Positions 1,230-52,036 of a DNA stretch of 64,000 bases are shown piece by piece. Origin of the DNA: Flavobacteriales bacterium (lineage in GTDB: Bacteria > Bacteroidota > Bacteroidia > Flavobacteriales_F > PHOS-HE28); contig JADJLR010000008.1 of NCBI GenBank assembly GCA_016710015.1, positions 87,912-151,911 on the forward strand, in the 5' to 3' direction. The translations under genes and the position numbers were made by a program. Below the pieces are notes generated by a model, which had not been told where the DNA came from, did no database searches, and saw only the letters and a program-made list of their open reading frames with translations. Each line of letters begins with the position of its first letter. Position 1 is the stretch's first letter.

Positions 1230-2666
1230 ATGGTTGCCCAATCAGCCCCGAATGCCCGGTTATCTTTGGCCACTTCACTAAATACCCTCCCGACTGTGCA
1301 AAACCTGGATGCTTACATCAAGACCCACGAGGAACGCTTCTTGAACGAACTCTTCGACCTGCTCCGGATCCCCAGCGTCAGCGCGGATCCGAAGTTCGAC
1401 GCCGATGTACGGCGCTGCGCAGAGGAAGTGAAGAAGCGACTGGTTGAAGCCGGCTTGGACAAGGTGGAGATCTGCCCCACGGATGGCCACCCGATCGTTT
1501 ACGGTGAAAAGATCACGGATCCTTCGAAGCCTACCGTGCTGGTCTATGGCCACTACGATGTACAACCCGCTGATCCCGTGGAACTTTGGCACAGCGGACC
1601 CTTTGAGCCGGTGATCAAGGATGGCATGATCTACGCCCGCGGCAGTGCGGACGACAAAGGCCAGTTCTACATGCATGTGAAGGCCGTTGAGGCCATGATG
1701 AAGAACGGCGGTCTGCCGTGCAATGTGAAGGTGATGATCGAGGGTGAAGAGGAAGTGGGAAGCAAGCACCTCGGGGTATTCGTGAAAGCCAACAAGGAGC
1801 GCCTGAAGGCCGATGTGGTGCTGATCAGCGATACGGCCATGATCGCCAACGACGTACCCAGCATCAACACCGGCTTGCGCGGACTGAGCTATGTGGAGGT
1901 GGAAGTGACCGGCCCGAACCGCGACCTGCACAGTGGTGTGTATGGTGGTGCGGTCTCCAACCCGATCAACGCGTTGTGTGAGATGATCGCCAGTTTGCAT
2001 GACGCTGACCGCCGGATCACCCTCCCAGGTTTCTACGACACCGTTCAAGAACTGAGCGCTGCCGAGCGAAAGGCTTTGGCCGAGGCCCCCTTCGATGAAA
2101 CGGCGTACATGAAGGATCTGGACATCGATGCGGTGCGTGGCGAGAAGGGCTACACCTCCGAGGAGCGCAGCAGCATCCGGCCCACTTTGGATGTGAATGG
2201 CATTTGGGGCGGTTACATTGGAGAAGGGGCCAAAACGGTACTTCCAAGCAAGGCTTTCGCCAAATTGAGCATGCGGTTGGTGCCGAACCAGAAGAGCGAG
2301 GCCATCACCAAACTGTTCCAGGACCACTTCGTGAAAATGGCGCCTCCGGGTGTTCGCGTTGTGGTTCGTCCCCACCACGGTGGCGAGGCAGCGGTGACCC
2401 CGATCGATTCCCAGGCATACTTGGCGGCCAGCAAGGCCATGGAAGAGACCTTTGGCAAGAAGCCGATCCCAACGCGGGGTGGCGGAAGCATCCCCATCGT
2501 GGCTTTGTTCGAAGCCGAATTGGGACTAAAGACGGTGCTCTTCGGCTTCGGCTTGGATAGCGACAACATCCACAGCCCGAACGAGAAGTACGGCGTATTC
2601 AACTACCTCCAAGGGATCCGCACCATTCCACGGTTCTTCCACCATTTTGCAGCTTCCGCAAAGTGA
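1230..2666 (+). CDS. M20 family metallopeptidase (dipeptidase / ArgE-DapE-CPG2-like)
   Basis: 478-aa ORF with GHYDVQPADP...WHSGPFEP, SADDKGQ and EGEEEVGS metal-binding motifs of M20 peptidases. The true start may be the in-frame GTG at 1296 (MQNLDAYIK...). Confidence 0.8.
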   Translation: MVAQSAPNARLSLATSLNTLPTVQNLDAYIKTHEERFLNELFDLLRIPSVSADPKFDADVRRCAEEVKKRLVEAGLDKVEICPTDGHPIVYGEKITDPSKPTVLVYGHYDVQPADPVELWHSGPFEPVIKDGMIYARGSADDKGQFYMHVKAVEAMMKNGGLPCNVKVMIEGEEEVGSKHLGVFVKANKERLKADVVLISDTAMIANDVPSINTGLRGLSYVEVEVTGPNRDLHSGVYGGAVSNPINALCEMIASLHDADRRITLPGFYDTVQELSAAERKALAEAPFDETAYMKDLDIDAVRGEKGYTSEERSSIRPTLDVNGIWGGYIGEGAKTVLPSKAFAKLSMRLVPNQKSEAITKLFQDHFVKMAPPGVRVVVRPHHGGEAAVTPIDSQAYLAASKAMEETFGKKPIPTRGGGSIPIVALFEAELGLKTVLFGFGLDSDNIHSPNEKYGVFNYLQGIRTIPRFFHHFAASAK

Positions 2667-3154
2667 ACTTCGTTGATCAGGCGGTAAGTGGCAGGTGGCG
2701 GTTCCTCCACCCGGATCCCCTTTCATTTTATGTGTGCCTCGTGCTATTGACATCCTGCCTCAGCTACAAAGAAGTCGTGCTGCGTGATATCACGAACGTG
2801 GCGGTGGAGCGCATGGATGCGAAGGGTATCGCTTTGCGGGTGGATGCCCTGTTGGACAATCCGAACGGCTACCGCATCCACGTGCTGGATCCCGATGTGG
2901 ACCTCTACCTCAATGAGAAGTACATCGGCAAAGGCTTTCTGGACTCCATCGTGGTGCTACAGAGACGGACCGAAAAGGTGTATTCCGTGCCCATGCACGC
3001 CGAGCTGAAAGGAGGCTCGCTCTTGATGCTCTTGCTTTCGGGTTCCTTTAGCGGAAAGGACGTGACCCTTGGGGTAAAGGGTACCGTGGTGGGCAAGGCC
3101 GGATTCCTGCGGAAACGCTTTCCATTCGAACTGGAGGAGCAGATCCAGTTCTAA
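2663..3154 (+). CDS. hypothetical lipoprotein (possible LEA14/WHy-like fold)
   Basis: 163-aa ORF with FYVCLVLLTSC lipobox-like signal and a mid-region resembling LEA_2-type proteins. Start codon uncertain. Confidence 0.4.
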   Translation: MNFVDQAVSGRWRFLHPDPLSFYVCLVLLTSCLSYKEVVLRDITNVAVERMDAKGIALRVDALLDNPNGYRIHVLDPDVDLYLNEKYIGKGFLDSIVVLQRRTEKVYSVPMHAELKGGSLLMLLLSGSFSGKDVTLGVKGTVVGKAGFLRKRFPFELEEQIQF

Positions 3155-3612
3155 TCCGACCAACCGTCCGGGCGCTCCCATGTGCTGACCACTTCGTAGC
3201 CGAACATTCCCTTCGCCGTGCCCAACAAGCGTTCTCCGTATTGAAGTCCACGCACCCGGTCGGGATCCGGGACCTCCTCGAAAGACGGTGGCAATTGGCC
3301 TCGTTCGCTCCAGTAGTTGCGCAATTCACGCACGGTGCCATCGTACCGTAGGATCCGCAGACGTTCCGGCCCATGAACCAACATGTTCAACCAAAGGAGA
3401 CCGCTGAATAGGAAGGGTCCAACGGCCAACAAGTTGAACAGGAACCACTCCAAACGCTCCATCCCCAGCCCTAGGCCGATGCGCTTGTACGGCAAGAGGT
3501 TCCCGACGAAGCAGAACAAGGCCAACCACCGTGCTAGCACCGCAAACTCCTGCAAGGTGCGGATGCCGACCCACCAGAAACTGAACATCAGCACGAAGAG
3601 GCCGAAGACCAT
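3151..3612 (-). CDS. hypothetical membrane protein
   Basis: Minus ORF (track 3151..3846). ATG at 3612 (MVFGLFVLMFSFWW...) avoids overlap with the divergent YyaL start; 2-3 predicted TM helices; no recognisable family. Alternative starts at 3726 or 3738. Confidence 0.35.
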   Translation of the reverse strand: MVFGLFVLMFSFWWVGIRTLQEFAVLARWLALFCFVGNLLPYKRIGLGLGMERLEWFLFNLLAVGPFLFSGLLWLNMLVHGPERLRILRYDGTVRELRNYWSERGQLPPSFEEVPDPDRVRGLQYGERLLGTAKGMFGYEVVSTWERPDGWSD

Positions 3613-3706
3613 CCAGGTGCTCGGCCAGGTCTGCTCCTTGGCAGCCCCTTCCACGGCGCGGTGTTGATGCACTCCTCCCGGACCACGCCGCACGCGTTGT
3701 AGCAAG

Positions 3707-5858
3707 GTGTTCCTTTGGAGTGGCATGTCCGCGAACATACACCTGATGGTCGGTACACTGGCTGTGCTGACCGGATCCCACGGTTGTGCCCAAAGATCCG
3801 AACACGGGACCAACCCGCCCCAAGAAACCATGGCCGAACACACCAATCGCTTGGCGCAGGAAAGCAGCCCCTACCTCCTCCAGCATGCGCACAACCCTGT
3901 GGATTGGTACCCGTGGGGCGAGGAAGCGTTCGCCAAGGCCAAGGCGGAGAACAAGCTCCTGCTGATCAGCATCGGGTACAGCAGTTGCCATTGGTGCCAC
4001 GTAATGGAACGCGAAAGTTTCGAGGACACCGCCGTGGCCCAAGTGATGAACGATCGCTTCGTATGCGTGAAGGTGGATCGTGAGGAACGCCCCGATGTGG
4101 ACCAGGTATACATGAGCGCCGTGCAGTTGATGACCGGACAAGGAGGTTGGCCGTTGAACTGTTTCGCCTTACCCGACGGTCGGCCCGTTCACGGCGGCAC
4201 CTATTTCCCCGCCAAGCAGTGGGTGGAGCTGCTCACCGAACTGGACAAGACCTGGCAGCAGGACCCGGATCGTGTGCGCGCATATGCCGAGCGATTGCAC
4301 CAAGGCGTGAAGTCCCAAAACCTGGTGCAGACCACCGAGGAAGAGGCCGTGGTCGACCGTGGGGATCTCGATGCCTTGGTCGATGTTTGGCGCGACCGAT
4401 TGGACAACATCAACGGTGGACCGGACAAGGTGCCGAAGTTCCCCATGCCCAACAACTACGAATTCCTTTTGCGCTACGCGTGGCTCACCGAAGACAATGC
4501 GTTGAAAAGGCACGTGGAGCTGACCTTGGACAAGATGGCCTTGGGCGGGATCCATGATCAAGTGGGCGGCGGCTTTGCACGGTACAGCACGGATGCCGTG
4601 TGGAAGGCTCCGCACTTCGAGAAAATGCTGTACGACAATGCGCAACTCGTATCGCTCTACAGCAGGGCCTATCAAGCGTTCGGAAAGCCGTTGTACAAGC
4701 AGACCGTGGAGCATGCGCTTGCCTTCATCCAACGGGAAATGACCGCTCCGAACGGCTTGTTCTACAGCGCCCTCGATGCGGATACCGAAGGCGAGGAGGG
4801 GCGCTTCTACGTGTGGGAAAAGGACGAATTGCAAACGCTGCTTGGTGCCGAATACGACCTGGCCGCCGCCTACTACAACGTGGGTCCGAAAGGGCTTTGG
4901 GAACATGGCCGATACATCCTCTTGCGCAGTGAGGACGACCCGGCCTTCGCTGACCAATTCGGGATCGCGCTGCCCGAACTGGAACAACGCATCACGGCCA
5001 TCAACAACACGCTGCTCCACGCACGCGAAACCCGAGAACGACCCGGCCTGGATGACAAGTGCCTGACCTCGTGGAACGCGCTGATGGTCTCCGGGTATTG
5101 CGATGCCTACGAAGCGTTCGGGGATCCCACGTACTTGCAATGCGCCACTCGTGCCATGGATGTGTTGCTCTCCACTTGTCGTCGCACCAACGGAGCCCTG
5201 TGGCATTCCTACAAGGCCGAGACCAACGGACCGGGCAAGGCCACCATCAACGGCTATTTGGAGGACTATTGCTTCACGATCGAAGGCGCTGATCGACCTC
5301 TACCAGGTCACCTTCGAAGAACGCTGGCTCACCGAAGCACGCGCCTTGGCCGACCATGCCATCCGCCATTTCCTGGATGAAAGCACCGGCGTGTTCCACT
5401 TTACCAGCGATCTGGATCCGGCATTGATCGCACGCCCTTCCGAGTTACACGACAACGTGATCCCGGCATCGAACAGCAGCATGGCCAACGGGCTGTTCCT
5501 CCTCGGTCATCTATTCGACGACGAACACTACTTGGCCATCAGTGAACGGCTCCTTCGCACCATTCCGGTGAACATGGCATCGTATCCCACCGGCCATTCC
5601 AACTGGGCACAACTCGCCGTGCAGACCGCATTCCCTTTCTACGAGATCGCCATCACCGGCCCGCAAGCGCTTGCGATGCGCCAAGCTTTCGCATCCCATT
5701 ATCTCCCCAACCGATCGTTCATGGGAAGTACCACCACCAGCTACCTGCCGTTATTGAATGGCAAGACCGGTGCCGGTAGCACGATCTTTGTGTGTGTGGA
5801 GAAGACCTGTCAACTTCCGGTCACCACTGTAGAAGCGGCTTTGAAGCAGATACCATGA
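3707..5858 (+). CDS. thioredoxin domain-containing protein YyaL (DUF255 + N-acylglucosamine-epimerase-like six-hairpin), frameshifted near 5282-5288
   Basis: [23 protein letters not shown] and [12 protein letters not shown] thioredoxin-like motifs. The protein continues in a +1 frame (track ORF 5103..5858: [14 protein letters not shown]...) after ...[11 protein letters not shown]. One extra G in a GG run breaks the frame. Joined length ~717 aa is typical of YyaL. Start may be 3725 (MSANIHL) or 3830 (MAEHTNRL). Confidence 0.8.
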
Positions 5859-6757
5859 TCCGTTCCCTCCTCCTCCTGTTCACTTCCACACTCGCATGGG
5901 GTGCAACCGCGCAGGCCCTGCTGATCCTGCCAGAGACCGGGGATGTACACGACCTGCACTTCAATCCGAAATTCATCCAGCGCAACCACATCAGCGCCAT
6001 CATCGGCCAACGCATGGTGAAACGCGAAGGCGAACCCATGCGCGAACGCAACGAGAAATACCTGTACCGCTTCAATACCATTGGGCTTCCGGTATACAGC
6101 AACAACTCGTTCGGTCAACCAGGGAGCGGGCGCGATACGGCGAGCACCACCTACACGTACGATACCGGAGGCCGTGTGATGCGCCGCCTGCGGAACGACC
6201 TCAGTGGCCACTTCGCCTACGAGAACGAATTGGATGCCAAAGGCCGCGTGGTACGCGAGACCTATACCCGCGTGGAGAACCTCGGCACGGACCGTTACAA
6301 CCTGATCCCCGGAAAGGTGTCGGAGATCAGCGACGAACATTTCCGGTACGAGGCACTCAGTGATACCGTGCTGAAGAAGGTCCACATCAACAACTACGAT
6401 CTGCCCTTCCGCGAGCAATTGTTCGTGACCGATCAACTCGGCTACCTGCGACGTATGGAAGACCGCTACCTGATCAGCAACCGCCGATCACGTGTATCAT
6501 TCAGTTACGATGAGAAAGGACGGTTGGCCGAACGCATCGAACAGCCCGACTTGGATCAGCCACGGACCATGAAGCGGGTCTGGCGGTACGATGCAGCAGG
6601 CAACGTGATCGAAGGGGAACTCTGGCATGATGACCGCCAACAAGAGCGCGATGAATACCTCTACGATGCACACACCATGGAACTGAAGGCCCGCTTGACC
6701 AAGGACCTGATCTCCGGTGTGATCCACGTGGTGCGCTTCACCACCGAACGGAACTGA
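5855..6757 (+). CDS. small secreted YD/RHS-repeat protein
   Basis: Start [21 protein letters not shown] (signal peptide) overlaps the YyaL stop (ATGA). At least five YD-type repeats: YTYDTGGRVMRR, YENELDAKGRVVRETY, FSYDEKGRLAERIE, WRYDAAGNVIEGE, YLYDAH. Confidence 0.55.
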   Translation: MIRSLLLLFTSTLAWGATAQALLILPETGDVHDLHFNPKFIQRNHISAIIGQRMVKREGEPMRERNEKYLYRFNTIGLPVYSNNSFGQPGSGRDTASTTYTYDTGGRVMRRLRNDLSGHFAYENELDAKGRVVRETYTRVENLGTDRYNLIPGKVSEISDEHFRYEALSDTVLKKVHINNYDLPFREQLFVTDQLGYLRRMEDRYLISNRRSRVSFSYDEKGRLAERIEQPDLDQPRTMKRVWRYDAAGNVIEGELWHDDRQQERDEYLYDAHTMELKARLTKDLISGVIHVVRFTTERN

Positions 6758-7257
6758 TGCGTCCGTTCTTCCTTTTCGCATTGCTCTTGACCGGCACGTT
6801 CGCCAGTGCCCAACGTGCGATCATTCGCCACGCCTACGGCCCGTTCGGAACTGCCGGCGATGCGGCTTACATCGTGGAAGAGGGACGCATCTACCAAGCC
6901 TGCGGACCCTTCGGCGCGAAAGGTGCCTGCCTCTATGTGTATACTGAAGATGAGGTGTACCATAGCCGCGATGCGTTCGGCATCAAAGGCCAAGGGGCTT
7001 TCCGGATAGAAGGCGATACGTTCTACCGGTGCCACGGCACGTTCTGCGCTAAGAGCGCCTGTGCCTTGCTGCTGGAAAAGCAAAGGTCTTCCGCGCCGAT
7101 GGTGCTTTTTGCAACAAAGGCGATGCTGCATTCTTGCTTGAAGGCAATACCATCTTCCTCGCCGAAGGTCCGTTCTGCAACAAGACCGACGCGATCCTGC
7201 AAGTGCAAGGCGAGGTGCCGATGATCGCCTTGTTGACGGTGTTGGCGGGGCTTTGAG
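6757..7257 (+). CDS. secreted tandem-repeat protein (~22-aa G-P/T-F-G/C ... EG-x-x-I-Y/F repeats), frameshifted near 7075-7086
   Basis: MRPFFLFALLLTGTFASAQ signal peptide. Repeats AYGPFGTAGDAAYIVEEGRIYQ / ACGPFGAKGACLYVYTEDEVYHSR / DAFGIKGQGAFRIEGDTFYR / CHGTFCAKSACALLLE.. continue in the -1 frame as ..KAKVFRADGAFCNKGDAAFLLEGNTIFLAEGPFCNKTDAILQVQGEVPMIALLTVLAGL to a stop at 7255-7257. The break lies in an AAAA run. Confidence 0.5.
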
Positions 7258-45095: not shown

Positions 45096-45341
45096 TCAGG
45101 CAGCACCGCCCTTGCCACTTCGTACCATCTCACGCACCTCCTCCCACGTGTAGCTCTTCCCCTCGCCCCGCTTGTACTCCTCGTAGCGCTCCTTCACGAT
45201 GCTATAGTGCTCATCGGTGAGGCCATTCTCATCCTCGCTCTTCTCCGAACGGAATAGGTCGGCCACTTTCTTGAGCAGACCTTCATCGGTGGTGCGCAGC
45301 AGGCGCTCGATCAATTGAAGTTTTAGGGACTCGGTGGACAT
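45096..45341 (-). CDS. putative addiction-module component (antitoxin-like, TIGR02574-type)
   Basis: 81 aa MSTESLKLQLIERLLRTTDEGLLKKVADLF...: amphipathic helix signature of the putative addiction module component family. Confidence 0.45.
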   Translation of the reverse strand: MSTESLKLQLIERLLRTTDEGLLKKVADLFRSEKSEDENGLTDEHYSIVKERYEEYKRGEGKSYTWEEVREMVRSGKGGAA

Positions 45342-45386: not shown

Positions 45387-46040
45387 TCACATGCTCTTTC
45401 GCGTGATGCGATAGAATGTGGCCCGCTCGCCCATAACGCTTTTCTCGCATTTGTACCCGAGCTTGTTCAGGTCGATCCCGGCCAGCAGCGGCTCGCCCGC
45501 TCCGAGCAGCACGGGCGATACCGCCAAGTGCATCTCATCGATCAACTTGGCTTGCAGGTATTGGCGCACTGTTGCGGCGCCGCCGCCCACGCGCACATCA
45601 CGCGCACCGGCTGCTTCGCGTGCGCGTTCCAGTGCCGCTTCGATCCCCTCGGTCACGAAGTGGAAGACGGTGCCGCCCTCCATTTCCAAGGAAGGCCGCG
45701 GATGGTGCGTGAGAACGAAAACGGGCACATGGTACACCGGGTTGCTGCCCCACCAACCTTTCCAATTCTCATCGGGCCAAGGACCGCGCACCGGCCCGAA
45801 CATGTTGCGCCCCATGATCCACGCGCCGATGTTCTCCATCCCTTGGGCGGCTATGTCATTGTCCGTTCCGAGGTCGCCCTCATCCTTGCCGAAGTGTGTT
45901 CGTTGGAAGTACCGTGTGCGGAGCATCCAGGTGTGCAAATTCTCTGCACCGACGCCGAGCGGGGATTCCAGTGATTGGTTCAGACCGGCACCGAATCCGT
46001 CGAGTGAGATGGTGTAGCTGTGAACGATGAGGCGGGGCAT
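45387..46040 (-). CDS. dihydrofolate reductase family protein (RibD C-terminal domain)
   Basis: MPRLIVHSYTISLDGFGAG...GRNMFGPVRGPW...RVGGGAATVRQYL: RibD_C fold. Start taken as M8 of the track ORF (46040) because duplicated 5' fragments elsewhere begin at this ATG. Confidence 0.75.
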   Translation of the reverse strand: MPRLIVHSYTISLDGFGAGLNQSLESPLGVGAENLHTWMLRTRYFQRTHFGKDEGDLGTDNDIAAQGMENIGAWIMGRNMFGPVRGPWPDENWKGWWGSNPVYHVPVFVLTHHPRPSLEMEGGTVFHFVTEGIEAALERAREAAGARDVRVGGGAATVRQYLQAKLIDEMHLAVSPVLLGAGEPLLAGIDLNKLGYKCEKSVMGERATFYRITRKSM

Positions 46041-46085
46041 GGTGGGGTTGTTTCGCTTCAAAGGTGAGCACTGCCTGCGAACCTC

Positions 46086-46160
46086 ACTTGATCAAAATTT
46101 GAAAGGCGGGTCGGGCTTTTATAGTTCTGAGCCGAAAAATTGAAAAGTGGTCGCCGCTTT
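46086..46160. repeat. hairpin-pair motif A (AAATTGAAAAG..stem..CTTTT x2) between the DHFR-family gene and the PIN gene
   Basis: Sequence aaaatttgaaaggcgggtcgggcttttatagttctgagccgaaaaattgaaaagtggtcgccgcttttcaattctcg; related copy at ~47420-47478. Coordinates +/-2. Confidence 0.5.
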
Positions 46161-46222
46161 TCAATTCTCGATCAGATCCTGATCATGGATGAAGCCAGCA
46201 ATTTGACCCATGCGAACATCCA

Positions 46223-46786
46223 TTAGAGCAGCGCATGCAGATAATCAGCAGTGTTCTTCAGGCCGACCTTTCGGAACTGGTCCAGCACTTGGTAAGCATC
46301 GAGTTCAGGGGAACGTCGGTTCGCCACAAGCTCCTTGAAAGCCTCTAACGCGCGCGCTTGGTTCAGGTCGATGATGTCCGTCAGGAAGTCGTCGGCGCTC
46401 TTTGCTTCCAACCCATACTTCGCCAGTTCCTTCTCAGGGAAGTCTCGGAGGTTGTTCGTGACGATCAGGTTCGCATTGGCCTTGATGGCAGCTGCCAGCA
46501 CATGGCGGTCGTCCTTGTCGGGCAATTCCAAGCCTTCGATCAGGCCGTCGTAATTCTCCACGAGCGCATCCGAGAACGCGTCGCTCATTCGTTGGATCCG
46601 TTTGAGGATCTCCGGTTCTTCAATGCCCTTATCGCGCATCACCTTGGCCCACTCGTCGCAAATGCCAATGCTCCACTTCACGGTGAAGAGGTCGTAATGC
46701 GCGAACCACAACAACAGATCCCGGATGTTCACCGGGAAGATGACGTTGGTGTCCAGAACACACGTGAAGCGGACGCTATGAATCAT
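46223..46786 (-). CDS. PIN domain toxin (VapC-like)
   Basis: VLDTNVIF ... acidic residues in PIN-like spacing; 11-bp overlap with upstream HTH gene. Confidence 0.65.
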   Translation of the reverse strand: MIHSVRFTCVLDTNVIFPVNIRDLLLWFAHYDLFTVKWSIGICDEWAKVMRDKGIEEPEILKRIQRMSDAFSDALVENYDGLIEGLELPDKDDRHVLAAAIKANANLIVTNNLRDFPEKELAKYGLEAKSADDFLTDIIDLNQARALEAFKELVANRRSPELDAYQVLDQFRKVGLKNTADYLHALL

Positions 46787-47309
46787 AGAGACCGGCCTCT
46801 TCGTCGTCCTTCATCATGTCCTTCAGGTTCCGCCTCTGCGCCTCCTTCATCGCCATGCGATATTTCATCACATGCTCGTACTTGATACGTCGATGCTTGC
46901 CGATCAAGGTGAAGGGGATCTTGCCCTGCTCCAGCAGCTTCACCACATGGGGACGGGAACAACCGAGCATCTCAGCGGCTGCCTGCGTGGTCATCTCCGC
47001 CGCGATGGGCATGATCTGTACGGGACGCCCTTCACCCAGATCCTTCAGGATCCGGGATAGAAGATGGAGCGCCATGGTTGGCACGACGATCTTTTGGGAG
47101 GTCTCTTCGATCTCGATCTCGGTCGTATCCTTTTTGGAGAGGCTCTTCAACGACTCTTCAAGTGCCGTGAACGACCTACGTGCGGCCTCTTGCTCCGACC
47201 GTGTCGGCTTGGCGGTATGGGTCTCAACAGCTGGCATGGCATCTGGGGTTGGTGATGCAAAGTTAAACGCAATAAACGAAACGGTGTTGCGCAGGGGCGT
47301 TGCCATCAC
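46776..47309 (-). CDS. helix-turn-helix (excisionase/MerR-type) DNA-binding antitoxin
   Basis: ...TQAAAEMLGCSRPHVVKLLEQGKIPFTLIGKHRRI: HTH_17-like motif. Likely start MPAVETHTAK at 47237. Confidence 0.6.
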   Translation of the reverse strand: MMATPLRNTVSFIAFNFASPTPDAMPAVETHTAKPTRSEQEAARRSFTALEESLKSLSKKDTTEIEIEETSQKIVVPTMALHLLSRILKDLGEGRPVQIMPIAAEMTTQAAAEMLGCSRPHVVKLLEQGKIPFTLIGKHRRIKYEHVMKYRMAMKEAQRRNLKDMMKDDEEAGLYDS

Positions 47310-47419
47310 CTCTTGGGCTTGTTTGATGGGAAGGGCCGGACAAGTCCAGACAACGAGCTAACCTCCTGATATACCGAGCGTTAGTTTCTTGATGGTTGCT
47401 TGATGGGCCATCCTATCCA

Positions 47420-47478
47420 GAAATTGAAAAGCGGGAACAGCTTTTACAGTTCTGGGGCGAAAATTTGAAAAGTCACCA
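47420..47478. repeat. hairpin-pair motif A' (copy of 46086-46160)
   Basis: Sequence agaaattgaaaagcgggaacagcttttacagttctggggcgaaaatttgaaaagtcacc: same architecture and ~75% identity to motif A. Confidence 0.5.
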
Positions 47479-47559
47479 TTGAGCTAGCCTGCATGCTGCG
47501 CGAGATCACGGGTAATAAGTGGGGGCGGGTGTATCGATTCGATGAGTACTTCAAGGTGT

Positions 47560-47640
47560 TCGAGTAGCACGGCGGGATGACGCGAGGGAGATGATTGCTG
47601 TGGACGATGAGGCGGGGCATGGGCGAAGAATCGCAAGCTC
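47560..47640 (-). repeat. duplicated 5' fragment of the DHFR-family gene (first 8 codons MPRLIVHS) with diverged upstream sequence
   Basis: Reads ...gtggacgatgaggcggggcatgg, against gtgaacgatgaggcggggcatgg at the native start (~46020-46041). Confidence 0.55.
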
Positions 47641-47651
47641 TCCGAGAACCA

Positions 47652-48596
47652 CTACCGAGCCACTGGCGGTTGCACGGCAATGTTCTTGATCCACATCTTG
47701 CTCTGCTCGCTGATGATTGCCTTTACGGCTGGGCTTTTCTCGAAGACGATGGTCATAAGGTGGTAGGCAGTCAACACAGCCTCCTGCAGATCCTGAGAAC
47801 TCTCCAAATCTTCGATCAGCACACCTTGTGCCCGTGCTTCCTCGCGATCAATGCGCCTGCCATGGCTCTTCTTGTCCGATCCACGACTGAAATAGTTGGC
47901 GACCGAGTTGCCTTTAACCTCCGCATCCGATTGCCCGTTGAACATGTACTTCATCAACCATCCAGCGACGACCTTTTCGCTATAGTCGATCGCATTCTGC
48001 GCCTCCTGAAGAAGCGCGGGGCCCAACGAGGGTAGGATCGGCGCCCAGAGATGTGCCATGTTCCGATCAGCGGAGATCTCCTTCTTGGCCCGCTCGAACT
48101 GGTCAAGAATGGCAACAGCGGAAACTGTCCGCCCGCCCACTGGCATCTGCGGATCGATCGGACCAAGCTGACTTTGCCTGCCCATGATGATGCGGTCCGC
48201 ACATAGGCTGATCATTGTTCCAGCCGACATCGCATACGTTGGAACGATCACCTCGATATCGTTCGGGAACTTGGACCTTAGGTATGCCACGATGGTCTCC
48301 GTGGAATTCGTGATCCCACCAGGCGTGTGCATGATAAGCGTCAGACCCTTGCTCCAATCCATCCCATGCATCGACGACATGAAACCGTTGATCTCCTCCT
48401 GCGTGATCTGCAGGAACATCGGGTGGGCTTGTGGCTTCTGAAGGAACGCGGATGCATAGAACAAAACGTTCCGGTCACCCCTCAGCTTCCCAACTTGTTG
48501 GAGAGCGCCGATCAGATTGCCGAACAGCCACTTGGTCTTTTCGGCATCCGTCTTCTGTGCTTCTAGAGCGTTGACAAGCTCATTCCACGACGGCAT
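47652..48596 (-). CDS. ClpP/SppA-fold serine protease (SDH-family / S49-like)
   Basis: 314 aa. LIMHTPGGITNSTETIVAYL ... VPTYAMSAGTMISLCADRIIMG: nucleophile-elbow and oxyanion pattern of ClpP-fold (S49/SDH) proteases. Confidence 0.6.
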   Translation of the reverse strand: MPSWNELVNALEAQKTDAEKTKWLFGNLIGALQQVGKLRGDRNVLFYASAFLQKPQAHPMFLQITQEEINGFMSSMHGMDWSKGLTLIMHTPGGITNSTETIVAYLRSKFPNDIEVIVPTYAMSAGTMISLCADRIIMGRQSQLGPIDPQMPVGGRTVSAVAILDQFERAKKEISADRNMAHLWAPILPSLGPALLQEAQNAIDYSEKVVAGWLMKYMFNGQSDAEVKGNSVANYFSRGSDKKSHGRRIDREEARAQGVLIEDLESSQDLQEAVLTAYHLMTIVFEKSPAVKAIISEQSKMWIKNIAVQPPVAR

Positions 48597-48598
48597 GC

Positions 48599-48829
48599 TC
48601 AGTGAATTGCCAAGCTCAGGGGGTGGCTCATGTCCCGTTGGATCGCTTGAAGCTGGGCCTTCTCGAATTCACTGTCATCCGGTTCCGCAAGCTTCACCAA
48701 CTCCACGTACTCCTGATACTCCTTCTGAGCAGCGGCTAACGCCTCGAAGAACTCATTGGATGAGTTGCCTTCGGCAGGCTGCTTTGGAATCTGTTGGTTG
48801 GGGAACATGGCGCTAAGATGGTACATCAA
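48599..48829 (-). CDS. small hypothetical protein co-transcribed upstream of the ClpP-fold protease
   Basis: 76 aa; acidic, helical (EFFEALAAAQKEYQEYVELVKLAEPDDSEFEKAQLQAIQRD); 2-bp gap to protease gene. Confidence 0.4.
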   Translation of the reverse strand: MMYHLSAMFPNQQIPKQPAEGNSSNEFFEALAAAQKEYQEYVELVKLAEPDDSEFEKAQLQAIQRDMSHPLSLAIH

Positions 48830-48884
48830 AGTTAATACCCTTGTTAAGGCGGCATCAAGACCAGTTAGGCGGATCGGTCCGGAC

Positions 48885-48962
48885 CGGCACCGAAGCCGTC
48901 GAGAGAGAGCGAGTAGCTGTGGACGATGAGGAGCATGGTGAATTGTTGCGCTTGAAGAATGC
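48885..48962 (-). repeat. second duplicated 5' fragment of the DHFR-family gene (MLLIVHSYSLSLDGFGAGPDRSA*)
   Basis: Reads gagtagctgtggacgatgaggagcatggtg, similar to 46008-46045. Encodes 24 residues collinear with the DHFR-family N-terminus. Coordinates +/-2. Confidence 0.5.
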
Positions 48963-48992: not shown

Positions 48993-49637
48993 TCAGGTGT
49001 GCAAGACTTCCCATCCATTCGTGTTGAAGGTAATGTCATCTACCTCCAAAGGTGATATGGCATCATTCACGGCGCGCCGAAAAGCAGTAAAAGCCCGCGG
49101 ATTGTCTTCGATCCAATACCAGCTCCCCCATGGCGGTCTTTTGGCTGGGTCTGCCGATACGATCAGCCGACGCGACTTCCGGCCCGCGAAATCGATTGGC
49201 CGAGTGATTCGTGACAGTTCATCGCCTGCTATTGCGTTCCAGTCTCGTTTCAGATTGCTCATGGCCTCAACCAAGGCCTCCTTCGTTGGTGTTGGTTTCG
49301 GTGGATGAATTTGCTCACCCCATACTGGCCACCAACCTTTCCCATCGGCCGAAACACCAGCTATGCGCTCTGCAACATCCTCGTCCGGCGGTGCTGGCAG
49401 TTCAGCAATGAGCAGATCATGGAACCCATACTGTCGAGCCCATGTGAGAGTTTCGCGCCAACGGCCACGAATGGCATCTGCTGTCGAAAATGCAGCCCCA
49501 GCCAAAATCAATGGAACCGGCGGTTTGGGTATACCCGCATCACTTCGAGATTCCCAGGCCTTGACCAGGACTCCGTGAACTCTAGCCCAATCACTTGGGA
49601 CAGGGACAAGAACTGTATTGGAATCTTCTTTAGACAT
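48993..49637 (-). CDS. hypothetical protein
   Basis: 214-aa ORF, Pro/Trp-rich, no recognisable domain. Lies between the second DHFR fragment and the ALDH gene. Confidence 0.35.
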   Translation of the reverse strand: MSKEDSNTVLVPVPSDWARVHGVLVKAWESRSDAGIPKPPVPLILAGAAFSTADAIRGRWRETLTWARQYGFHDLLIAELPAPPDEDVAERIAGVSADGKGWWPVWGEQIHPPKPTPTKEALVEAMSNLKRDWNAIAGDELSRITRPIDFAGRKSRRLIVSADPAKRPPWGSWYWIEDNPRAFTAFRRAVNDAISPLEVDDITFNTNGWEVLHT

Positions 49638-49859
49638 AGCTGTGAGAGATCAGCCGAATGCAAAGGACGATAGCATCGCGTGAGGGGGCGCAGCGGCAGC
49701 CCTGCGCAGGCGTGGTCTTGCGGACGCGTGCAACAAGGAGGCTGCGACGAAGGAGCCCCCGGAGCGCCGCGACCGCTGGCCGCGACAAGTCAGGCTATAG
49801 CGGAGCACCCGACCCGCGCGGGGTTCGTGCGTGAGCGAGGGGCACGCCAACATCATCAC

Positions 49860-51240
49860 TCAATTCAAATTCAAGTAAGCCCCCAACCCATGCAACCCGC
49901 CTTCCCGTCCGTAGCCGCTTTCCTTGTAGCCGCCGAAGGGTGAGGTGGGGTCGAACTTGTTGAAGGTGTTGGCCCAGATGACGCCCGCGCGCAATTTGCT
50001 GGTGAGGTTGAAGATCTTGGAGCCTTTGTCCGTCCACACGCCGGCGCTGAGGCCGTAGGGCGTGTTGTTGGCTTTCTGGATCACCTCGTCCACGGTGCGG
50101 AAGGTCTGCACGGCGAGCACGGGGCCGAAGATCTCCTCCTGCGCGATGCGCGCGCTTTGCGCCACGTTGAGGAAGAGCGTGGGGCGGCACCAGAAGCCTT
50201 TGCTGGGCAGCTCGCAGGCGGGCTGGTACATCTCCGCACCATCGGCTTGACCGATCTTGAGGTACTTGTTGATGGTGCCGAGCTGTTCCTTGCTGTTGAT
50301 GGCGCCGATGTCGGTGTTCTTGTCGAGCGGATCGCCCACGACGAGCGAGCGCATGCGGTGCTTGAGCTTGCGGATCACTTCGTCGTACACGCCTTCCTCC
50401 ACGAAGAGGCGGCTGCCGGCGCAGCACACGTGGCCCTGGTTGAAGTAGATGCCGTTGATGATGCCTTCGACGGCCTGGTCGATGGTGGCGTCGGCGAAGA
50501 TGATGTTGGCCGCTTTGCCGCCGAGCTCGAGCGTGGCCTTCTTGCCGGTGCCGGCGATGCTCTTCTGGATGAGCTTGCCCACGCCGGTGCTGCCGGTGAA
50601 GGCGATCTTGTCGATGCCCGGATGGTTGACGAGCGCCGCGCCCGTGGCACCCGCACCGGTGATGATGTTGACGACGCCATCGGGCAGTTCGGCTTCCTGG
50701 ATGAGCTCGGCGAGCAGCAAGGAGGTGAGCGGTGTGGTCTCGGCGGGTTTCAGCACCACGGTGTTGCCGCAGGCCAGCGCGGGCGCGATCTTCCACGCGG
50801 CCATGAGCAGCGGGAAGTTCCACGGGATGATCTGCCCGGCGACGCCCAGCGCGCTGGCTGTTTTTCCGGGGAAAGCGTAGCCGAGCTTGTCGGCCCAACC
50901 GGCGTAGTAGAAGAAGTGCGCGGCGGCGAGCGGCACGTCCACGTCGCGACTTTCACGGATGGCCTTGCCGCCGTCCATGCTTTCGACCACGGCGAACTGG
51001 CGGGCTTTCTCCTGCAGCAGGCGCGCGATGCGGTAGATGTACTTGGCGCGTTCGGCGGCGGGCATCTTGCTCCACACGTTGTCGTAGGCCTTGCGCGCGG
51101 CTTTCACGGCGGCGTCCACATCGGCCGCGTTGGCCTCGGCGATGCGCGCGATCTTCTGCTCGTTGGCGGGGTTGATGGTGTCGAAGTAGTTGCCGCTCTT
51201 GGGCTTCACCCATTTGCCGCCGATGAAGAGGTCGTACTGC
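49860..51240 (-). CDS. aldehyde dehydrogenase family protein (5' end obscured by low-complexity artefact)
   Basis: Collinear ALDH from EQYDLFIGGKWV through catalytic ELGGKAANIIF and FNQGHVCCAGSRLFV to the C-terminus ~49860. The N-terminal ~15 codons run into the poly-G block. Confidence 0.8.
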
Positions 51241-51415
51241 TCCCCCGGGGGGGGGGGGCTTTTGGGGGGGGGGGGGGGGGGGGGCCCGGGGGGGGGTTTT
51301 TGGGCGGCCCCCGCCCCCCAGGAGAAAGGGGCCCCCCCCCCCCTCTTTTTTTTTGGGCCCCCGGGGGGGTCCCCCCGCGGGGGGGGGGAGGGGGGGATTC
51401 GAAATTGTTTTCCGG

Positions 51416-52036
51416 GGTGGCCGGCACTCAATTCAGTAAGCGCGGGCAGGTGCTCCATGGCGAACTCCAGCGAATGGGCCATTTCGATGAGCGTGGTCGC
51501 GAAGGTGCGCGGGTGTTTGCATTTCCGATCACAGGCCTTCAGTTCCGCCGAGAGGTGCGCACACAGGTCCTTGTACGGCTGAAAGAGTTTCAGTTTGTTA
51601 TCCTCGTCCACGTTCCGGTGCAGGAAGGATTTGGAGCCTTCCACGATCACCAGCGCACGCAGGTCCACCGGGTCCAGTTGGGCCGCCATGGCATCCTTGG
51701 ACCAGAGCCCGCACAATAAACGAATGTCCCCTGTAGGCGTTCCCAAGCATCCGGGAGCAAACGTCCTTCCTGCTGACAATGCGTATCCAACCACATCCAA
51801 TACAACTGGAAGTAGTACTGAAGCAAGCGCTGTTTGTTCGGAAAGTACTTGTAGATCGTAGCTTCCGTGCATTCTGCGCGTTCAGCGAGCTTCTTGAAGG
51901 TGAAGACCTCCAGACCAAGCTCGTTCATGAGAGCAAGTCCTTCCGAGAGGATCCGTTCCCCCACGACGGAAGTGCCCGGATCACGCAAGTGAAGGGTCGG
52001 GTCAGGGATCAATTGGTAATGGGCCATGGGTGCCAA
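51416..52036 (-). CDS. TetR/AcrR family transcriptional regulator (frameshifted near 51728-51731; 3' end obscured by artefact)
   Basis: HTH FTFKKLAERAECTEATIYKYFPNKQRL. The C-terminal ligand domain continues in the adjacent frame (DIRLLCGLWSKDAMAAQLDPVDLRALVIVEG...) after a GGGG undercall. Divergent from the ABC exporter operon. Confidence 0.65.

Follow-up and report, generated by a model that had tools for sequence, protein, structure and literature searches.

What is the task of a gene pair in which a ClpP-fold serine protease follows two nucleotides behind a small acidic protein, and which sits beside a likely toxin–antitoxin pair in a region where near-identical contigs differ in their content? 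This question is raised by positions 47652–48829 of a stretch of 64,000 nucleotides (the window in the following) from a Flavobacteriales metagenome-assembled genome (GCA_016710015.1, contig JADJLR010000008.1). A sequence-only reading had taken the two genes as a possible toxin–antitoxin or phage-defence candidate. We found that the pair is a horizontally mobile, patchily distributed unit that is kept together by strong selection. Regarding its function we favour, at somewhat less than even probability, a toxin–antitoxin-like or abortive-infection module in which the small partner would be a prodomain supplied in trans, with its C-terminal tail blocking the protease.

The protease and its small partner

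The protease gene (47652..48596, minus strand) starts with ATG and encodes a cytoplasmic SDH-type serine protease of 314 amino acids with an isoelectric point (pI) of 6.6. Its ClpP fold, which had been read from the MSAGT and TPGG motifs, is borne out by a match to Pfam SDH_protease (PF01972) at residues 59–174 with 70.4 bits against a gathering score of 31.3 (E 1.7e-19), by the motifs HTPGG at 90–94 and AMSAGT at 122–127, and by an AlphaFold2 model (predicted local distance difference test score 89.5, predicted template modelling score 0.87), for which Foldseek against the PDB returned ClpP, SppA (3rst, 4kwb) and 1510-N (6m4b) at 13–18% identity and E values of about 3e-4. By sequence profile the closest solved structure is 1510-N (3bpp, E 1.5e-3), and in a structural search of BFVD the SDH (‘serine dehydrogenase’) proteinases of giant viruses came out best (E 1.5e-10, TM about 0.6), with phage Clp and head-maturation proteases being far weaker (about 1e-3 to 1e-4). 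The enzyme thus shares its fold, the TPGG loop and the xMSAG nucleophile with the SDH-type proteinases (PF01972, NF047768; relatives of MEROPS S49), but with 84.5 bits it stays far below the cut-off of 250 of the NCBIfam equivalog model Clp_like_SDH (NF047768) and therefore represents a distinct subfamily. As the Pfam match is limited to residues 59–174, the mostly helical extension that makes up the C-terminal half (residues 180–314) is specific to this subfamily. No hydrophobic segment was found in the protease (maximum 19-residue Kyte-Doolittle mean 1.36) and its N-terminus is hydrophilic, so that it lacks a secretion signal, as had been stated before.

Conservation points to Ser124 (AMSAGT), Asp148 (GPIDPQ) and either His245 (KSHGRR) or His279 as candidate catalytic residues. 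Ser124 is nearly invariant and Asp148 invariant, and both His245 and His279 are kept even in relatives of about 35% identity, but His182 is not preserved among distant relatives. A Ser-Lys dyad as in SppA and 1510-N is doubtful, since the roughly equivalent position 171 is occupied by either Lys or Arg. One homologue (P0087) reads AMLAGT, with Leu in place of the nucleophile Ser, and may be an inactive variant or a sequencing error.

Upstream of the protease gene, and separated from it by the 2 nucleotides 48597–48598, lies the gene of the small acidic partner (48599..48808, minus strand), which confirms the spacing reported for the two open reading frames (ORFs). The longest ORF extends to 48829 and would give 76 amino acids from a TTG codon, but the true start is probably the ATG at 48808, resulting in 69 amino acids, because close homologues are 68 amino acids long and align from that Met. 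The TTG codon is covered by TAACTTTG (48827..48834, minus strand), which lies just upstream of the partner gene and is a possible −7 promoter element of it; the Bacteroidota consensus for this box is TAnnTTTG. With a pI of 4.5–4.65, helices predicted by AlphaFold2 at residues 16–41 (with high confidence) and 47–60, and no match among the Pfam, NCBIfam and PADLOC models, the earlier description as an acidic helical protein of no known domain holds for everything except, probably, its length of 76 residues. The C-terminal tail is predicted to be unstructured and ends with HPLSLAIH. The database protein P0121 is identical to the partner of the window.

Conservation and mobility of the pair

A pattern-limited scan of 185,579 species genomes, one per species, yielded 287 protease loci, of which 80 were fetched and 79 were usable; the protease family is thus sparse, and it is patchy across phyla. 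The fetched loci belong to Bacteroidota, Acidobacteriota, Actinomycetota, Chloroflexota, Planctomycetota, Gemmatimonadota, Myxococcota, Nitrospirota, Pseudomonadota and Spirochaetota as well as to one archaeon of the Halobacteriales, and their proteases are 45–72% identical to that of the window. Protein databases hold more than 2300 homologues after clustering at 90%, while a library clustered at 50% contains 6690, 2617 and 559 cluster representatives at E ≤1e-3, ≤1e-10 and ≤1e-30, respectively.

The pairing itself, which the sequence-only reading had proposed to check across genomes, is conserved. An ORF of 55–85 amino acids on the same strand abuts the protease start directly upstream in 76 of the 79 loci, with a median gap of 5 nucleotides and 64 of the 76 gaps between −4 and +25 nucleotides. 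The three unpaired loci are truncated contigs or show slightly larger gaps, and the pairing is far beyond chance. These small proteins share one family motif, consisting of a helix with L-x5-A-x3-Y-x2-Y, a variable linker and a C-terminal strand P-L-[TGS]-[LTI]. Of the 76 partners, 67 and 69 have the two Tyr, respectively, 71 the Pro, 58 the Leu and 70 the small residue [TGS]. The C-terminal tail is the most conserved element of the partner, and 70 of 77 partners are acidic with a pI below 6. The partner evolves faster than the protease, as mean pairwise identities are 23% and 52%, respectively, yet both co-diverge (Mantel r 0.55, with 0 of 999 permutations as high), and judged from these sequences this is the pattern usual for an antitoxin and its toxin. 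Searches with the single partner sequence gave only 10 matches and a profile of 77 sequences found 13 database proteins. That the partner is barely found in this way explains why it has no Pfam entry and why its ORF is unannotated in several records, and it is also the reason why we inferred the size of the family from gene neighbourhoods.

No third gene is conserved in the 79 loci, and we therefore regard the pair as a complete unit. The nearest neighbours are heterogeneous, with 149 proteins falling into 131 Pfam families, among which the methylases of restriction–modification systems are commonest (N6_Mtase 5, Eco57I 4, MmeI 2, type I S subunit 2). PADLOC models for type IIG, I and II restriction–modification enzymes and for MADS match roughly 8 of the 149, and the second-nearest neighbours are likewise mixed, including Eco57I, ResIII, SNF2, PIN, an AbiEii-like AAA_21 protein and many metabolic genes. 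A tyrosine recombinase gene lies no further than 6 kb away in 6 of the loci and a DDE transposase gene in 2, and toxin–antitoxin genes occur among the neighbours as well. In three loci from Latescibacterota and Nitrospirales, the gene of a 1344-amino-acid type IIG restriction–modification-like enzyme immediately precedes the pair on its strand (L077 1648–5679, L078 20–4054, L079 1532–5563), which may reflect a co-transferred island or a functional link.

Mobility is seen in a Gemmatimonadaceae locus (L008), where an integron integrase (TIGR02249, 392.5 bits against a cut-off of 265) is located upstream of the pair and imperfect attC-like hairpins with CTAAC...GTTAG ends and z-scores from −2.9 to −3.4 flank the pair on both sides. 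Given the hairpins on both sides and a genuine integrase, the pair represents here a single integron cassette of about 1.4 kb. In this integron (1868–7160) the integrase is followed by a cassette for a protein of 100 amino acids, a Dcm cytosine methylase with an IscB-like HNH protein, which is probably a restriction–modification cassette, and then the partner and the protease.

More distant relatives, which are 34–38% identical to the protease over its full length, are carried by phages and plasmids. Gp31 of Gordonia phage BeeGee lies between the tail and lysis genes and the integrase side and is abutted by an unannotated ORF of 58 amino acids (L089 4825–5001), five prophages of Porphyromonas gingivalis carry a relative immediately after HicAB, and others are found in a Mu-like phage of Shewanella and in a lambdoid region of Klebsiella. 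On a prophage-like plasmid of Pseudomonas aeruginosa the relative is located beside int/xis and abutted by an unannotated ORF of 66 amino acids ending with ...TTVTTNTISARNA (L092 4808–5008), and on an Acidiphilium plasmid it is located beside MbcA/RES and IS1. The phage-borne relatives occupy accessory positions and not the head-gene block. In the ORFs upstream of these relatives the N-terminal parts have diverged and a T/S-rich C-terminal strand is kept, which resembles the tail ...HPLTTNTIRxK seen in one clade of the main family. On plasmids, two SDH proteases of the canonical type (27–30% identity) have no annotated small ORF upstream.

These data also exclude a housekeeping operon of a signal peptide peptidase at a syntenic core position, which had been named as the finding that would overturn the candidate: the family is sparse and without synteny, its flanks are heterogeneous and it is found on mobile elements. 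SppA itself shares the fold, but it is a membrane-anchored core gene product that acts outside the cytoplasm, whereas the window protease has neither a signal peptide nor a membrane anchor and reaches only 17.4 bits with TIGR00706 against a cut-off of 155.45. We therefore reject an SppA operon. ClpP of the S14 family is equally distinct, as PRK12553 gives 13.8 bits against 228 and no ATPase neighbour is conserved in the 79 loci.

Possible functions of the pair

In the module that we favour, the protease would be the effector and the small acidic protein its dedicated partner, both being encoded in a self-contained mobile unit. The helical part of the partner may dock on the protease and place the conserved P-L-[T/G/S]-L strand into the substrate groove, which would keep the enzyme silent. 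Depletion of the partner, be it by loss of the cassette, by shut-off of host translation during infection or by displacement through a phage protein, would then free the ClpP-fold protease to degrade cellular or phage proteins, which would result in post-segregational killing or abortive infection. While the anatomy, context and mobility of the earlier toxin–antitoxin or phage-defence candidate stand as described above, what we infer is its functional part: that the partner binds and inhibits the protease, that the protease is toxic, and what the trigger and the targets are.

We propose a prodomain-like inhibitor because of the conserved flexible tail, a natural fusion protein and precedents within the fold. 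The fusion P0152 (408 amino acids) joins in frame a partner-like N-terminus (...YLDMLEKIKKQYQQYAEV...NPLTDNTHRFE) to the protease, in a layout like that of an N-terminal propeptide. The propeptides of subtilisin and alpha-lytic protease are folding catalysts as well as inhibitors, and by analogy the partner may resemble them as a small N-terminal module with its C-terminal tail in the active site, even though these proteases have another fold and the module of the window is normally a separate gene. The precedents are 1510-N, which is discussed below, and the SppA structure 4kwb with C-termini of SppA bound in the active sites, which demonstrates a tail in the site for S49 proteases, although this tail belongs to the same chain.

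The match to the logic of toxin–antitoxin and abortive-infection systems follows from a small, acidic and fast-evolving upstream protein that is tightly coupled to a larger conserved enzyme, and from the residence among toxin–antitoxin and restriction–modification genes, in accessory slots of prophages and in an integron. As in type II toxin–antitoxin systems, the genes for the small protein and the larger effector are adjacent and co-oriented (76 of the 79 loci), and their distribution is patchy and mobile, covering many phyla and an archaeon, with no synteny and with copies on plasmids, in phages and in an integron cassette. Serine proteases can act as toxins in systems of this kind, as shown by IetAS, in which the serine-protease toxin IetS and the ATPase antitoxin IetA confer plasmid stabilisation and anti-phage defence. 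As quoted in 10.64898/2025.12.08.692795, IetAS is likewise a mobile two-gene module with a protease effector that is neutralised by the neighbouring gene. There is no sequence relationship between the two systems, nor did PADLOC give a match to the window pair. IetS is moreover subtilisin-like and not of the ClpP fold, and IetA is a large ATPase and not an acidic peptide of about 70 amino acids.

Several observations weigh against such a module. The protease is unusually conserved for a toxin, with 80 invariant columns in an alignment of 20 sequences and 45–75% identity across phyla, and a DNA-binding domain, as type II antitoxins typically have, is missing from the partner. Neither protein was matched at E ≤0.1 by the 5027 models of PADLOC-DB v2.0.0, which covers systems described until 2023. 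The enrichment in defence islands that the sequence-only reading had suggested to look for was found only in part: restriction–modification methylases are indeed the commonest neighbours, but most flanking genes are ordinary metabolic ones and the association with defence genes, as judged from plain neighbour counts, is real but moderate. Finally, P0152 is the only fusion seen and could result from a sequencing frameshift.

A bolder form of the module, which we consider doubtful, would establish a novel kind of addiction or abortive-infection system, the first with a ClpP-fold toxin, in which the protease slowly consumes its own separately encoded prodomain-like inhibitor. The toxin would then itself be the protease that degrades the antitoxin, and any interruption of partner synthesis, by phage-induced shut-off or cassette loss, would lead to proteolysis without the need for Lon or ClpXP.

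The main rival, though an unlikely one, is that the partner is a dedicated substrate and the protease its maturation enzyme. Cleavage at P-L|[T/G/S]-L would release an active helical fragment or a C-terminal peptide serving as signal, regulator or effector. The conserved tail does resemble a cleavage site with Leu at P1, and the strict co-occurrence and co-divergence fit this explanation equally well. A precedent is provided by NfeD/STOPP 1510-N and stomatin (PH1510/PH1511), as 1510-N, the closest solved relative by sequence and also of the ClpP fold, cleaves the C-terminal hydrophobic region of the stomatin encoded in the same operon. NfeD, however, is membrane-bound, uses a Ser-Lys dyad and has a PHB-domain stomatin as partner, whereas the window protease is without membrane segments, reaches 29.7 bits against 40 with NfeD1b_N and shows Lys or Arg at the equivalent Lys position. 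There is also no stomatin gene nearby, and the partner in the window is a 69-amino-acid acidic protein without a PHB domain. A product that is active on its own would further not be expected to vary as much in its N-terminal part as the partner does (23% mean identity), a secretion signal is missing from the partner, conserved genes for a receptor or for a protein acting downstream were not found, and the mobility of the pair with its location in prophage accessory regions and an integron is left unexplained.

Quite unlikely is an ordinary protease of stress response or quality control that is accessory and has no role in genetic conflict; the partner would be its private chaperone or adaptor and aid assembly or substrate delivery. 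The very high conservation of the protease, the many metabolic neighbours and the missing PADLOC matches, all of which count against a toxin–antitoxin-like module, speak for such an enzyme. It does not account for a family that is sparse, patchy and without synteny, for the copies in an integron cassette, in prophages and on plasmids, or for the position of the window copy in a strain-variable region among toxin–antitoxin genes. Very improbable, finally, is an origin in phage morphogenesis as a prohead protease with its acidic helical scaffold, either as a remnant or as a decoy disturbing capsid assembly of incoming phages. In its favour are the scaffold-like acidic and helical upstream partner, the relatives inside phage genomes and a weak hit of the protease with NF045542, the model for ClpP-related head maturation proteases (E 4.7e-07). 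This hit, however, scores only 29.9 bits against a cut-off of 120, BFVD ranks phage proteases well below the giant-virus SDH proteinases, neither the window nor the 79 loci have capsid, portal or terminase genes next to the pair, and the phage copies lie outside the head-gene block.

The region around the pair in the window

The location of the pair in a variable hotspot, as had been claimed, could be confirmed, since the content between an aldehyde dehydrogenase gene and the RibD_C gene (45387..46061) differs among near-identical contigs. The same applies to the duplicated target-gene fragments on its borders, as the first 40–89 nucleotides of RibD_C are repeated on either side of the pair. 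The copy at the upstream edge of the cassette (48872..48956, minus strand; translation MLLIVHSYSLSLDGFGAG...) is 80–85% identical to 45973–46061 and the shorter copy at the downstream edge (47583..47622, minus strand) is 86–96% identical to 46001–46042. In addition, a 56-nucleotide piece of the RibD_C upstream region (46093–46148) is repeated at 47418–47473, and a further copy of the 5' end may be present at 49637–49660. Three cargo segments, namely the PIN/HTH genes, the protease pair and an ORF of 214 amino acids, are set apart from each other by diverged tandem copies (71–96%) of the 5' end of RibD_C and of its upstream region. Speculatively, this arrangement suggests that the diverged RibD_C copies served as anchors for the repeated one-sided homologous capture of foreign segments.

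The PIN/HTH pair next to the protease, already recognised as such from the sequence, consists of genes for a PIN-domain protein (46223..46786, minus strand; 132 bits with the RSP_2648-family model, below its cut-off of 170) and an HTH_17/excisionase-type protein (46776..47309, minus strand), which overlap by 11 nucleotides and likely form a toxin–antitoxin pair. In the sister contig L083 a Fic gene is found in its place, with breakpoints near 47491 and 46187, and another near-identical contig carries GmrSD and DUF932 genes upstream. A Phd/Unstab_antitox-like protein of 81 amino acids is encoded at 45096–45341 (minus strand) with no adjoining toxin gene and seems to be an orphan antitoxin; its equivalent in L083 is followed by a ParE toxin.

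The ORF of 214 amino acids (48993..49637, minus strand) has no match in Pfam, NCBIfam or PADLOC and is called as a gene in only some of the near-identical contigs, being absent from the calls of L084 and L088. With no family match and no third gene conserved in the 79 loci, we reject it as a third component. An integron or a cluster of attC sites lacking integron integrases (CALIN) was also rejected for the window, as no integrase was found in the region and its intergenic parts show no attC-like hairpins (z-scores from −0.8 to +2.2), the only strong hairpin (about 46138–46166) being terminator-like. Long runs of G, C and A at 51240–51430 replace the sequence at the end of the TetR gene and the start of the aldehyde dehydrogenase gene that is present in the sister contig L082. 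This block is probably an assembly or consensus artefact, and it creates an artificial ORF of 670 amino acids (49860..51872) with a Pro/Gly-rich stretch.

Our literature search, which covered SDH proteases, ClpP-like and S49 proteases in connection with defence or toxin–antitoxin systems and SppA in connection with defence, gave no description of the pair and no published function for the SDH protease family. If the pair is indeed a toxin–antitoxin or defence module, its novelty would lie in an effector of the ClpP fold and in a mini-partner that bears a tail. It would then be a compact (about 1.2 kb) and widespread protease-based addition to the toxin–antitoxin and defence repertoire, and the module is small enough for direct testing. 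It would also define a family of small proteins that ordinary sequence searches have missed, and provide the first function for a large uncharacterised branch of the SDH/S49 proteases.

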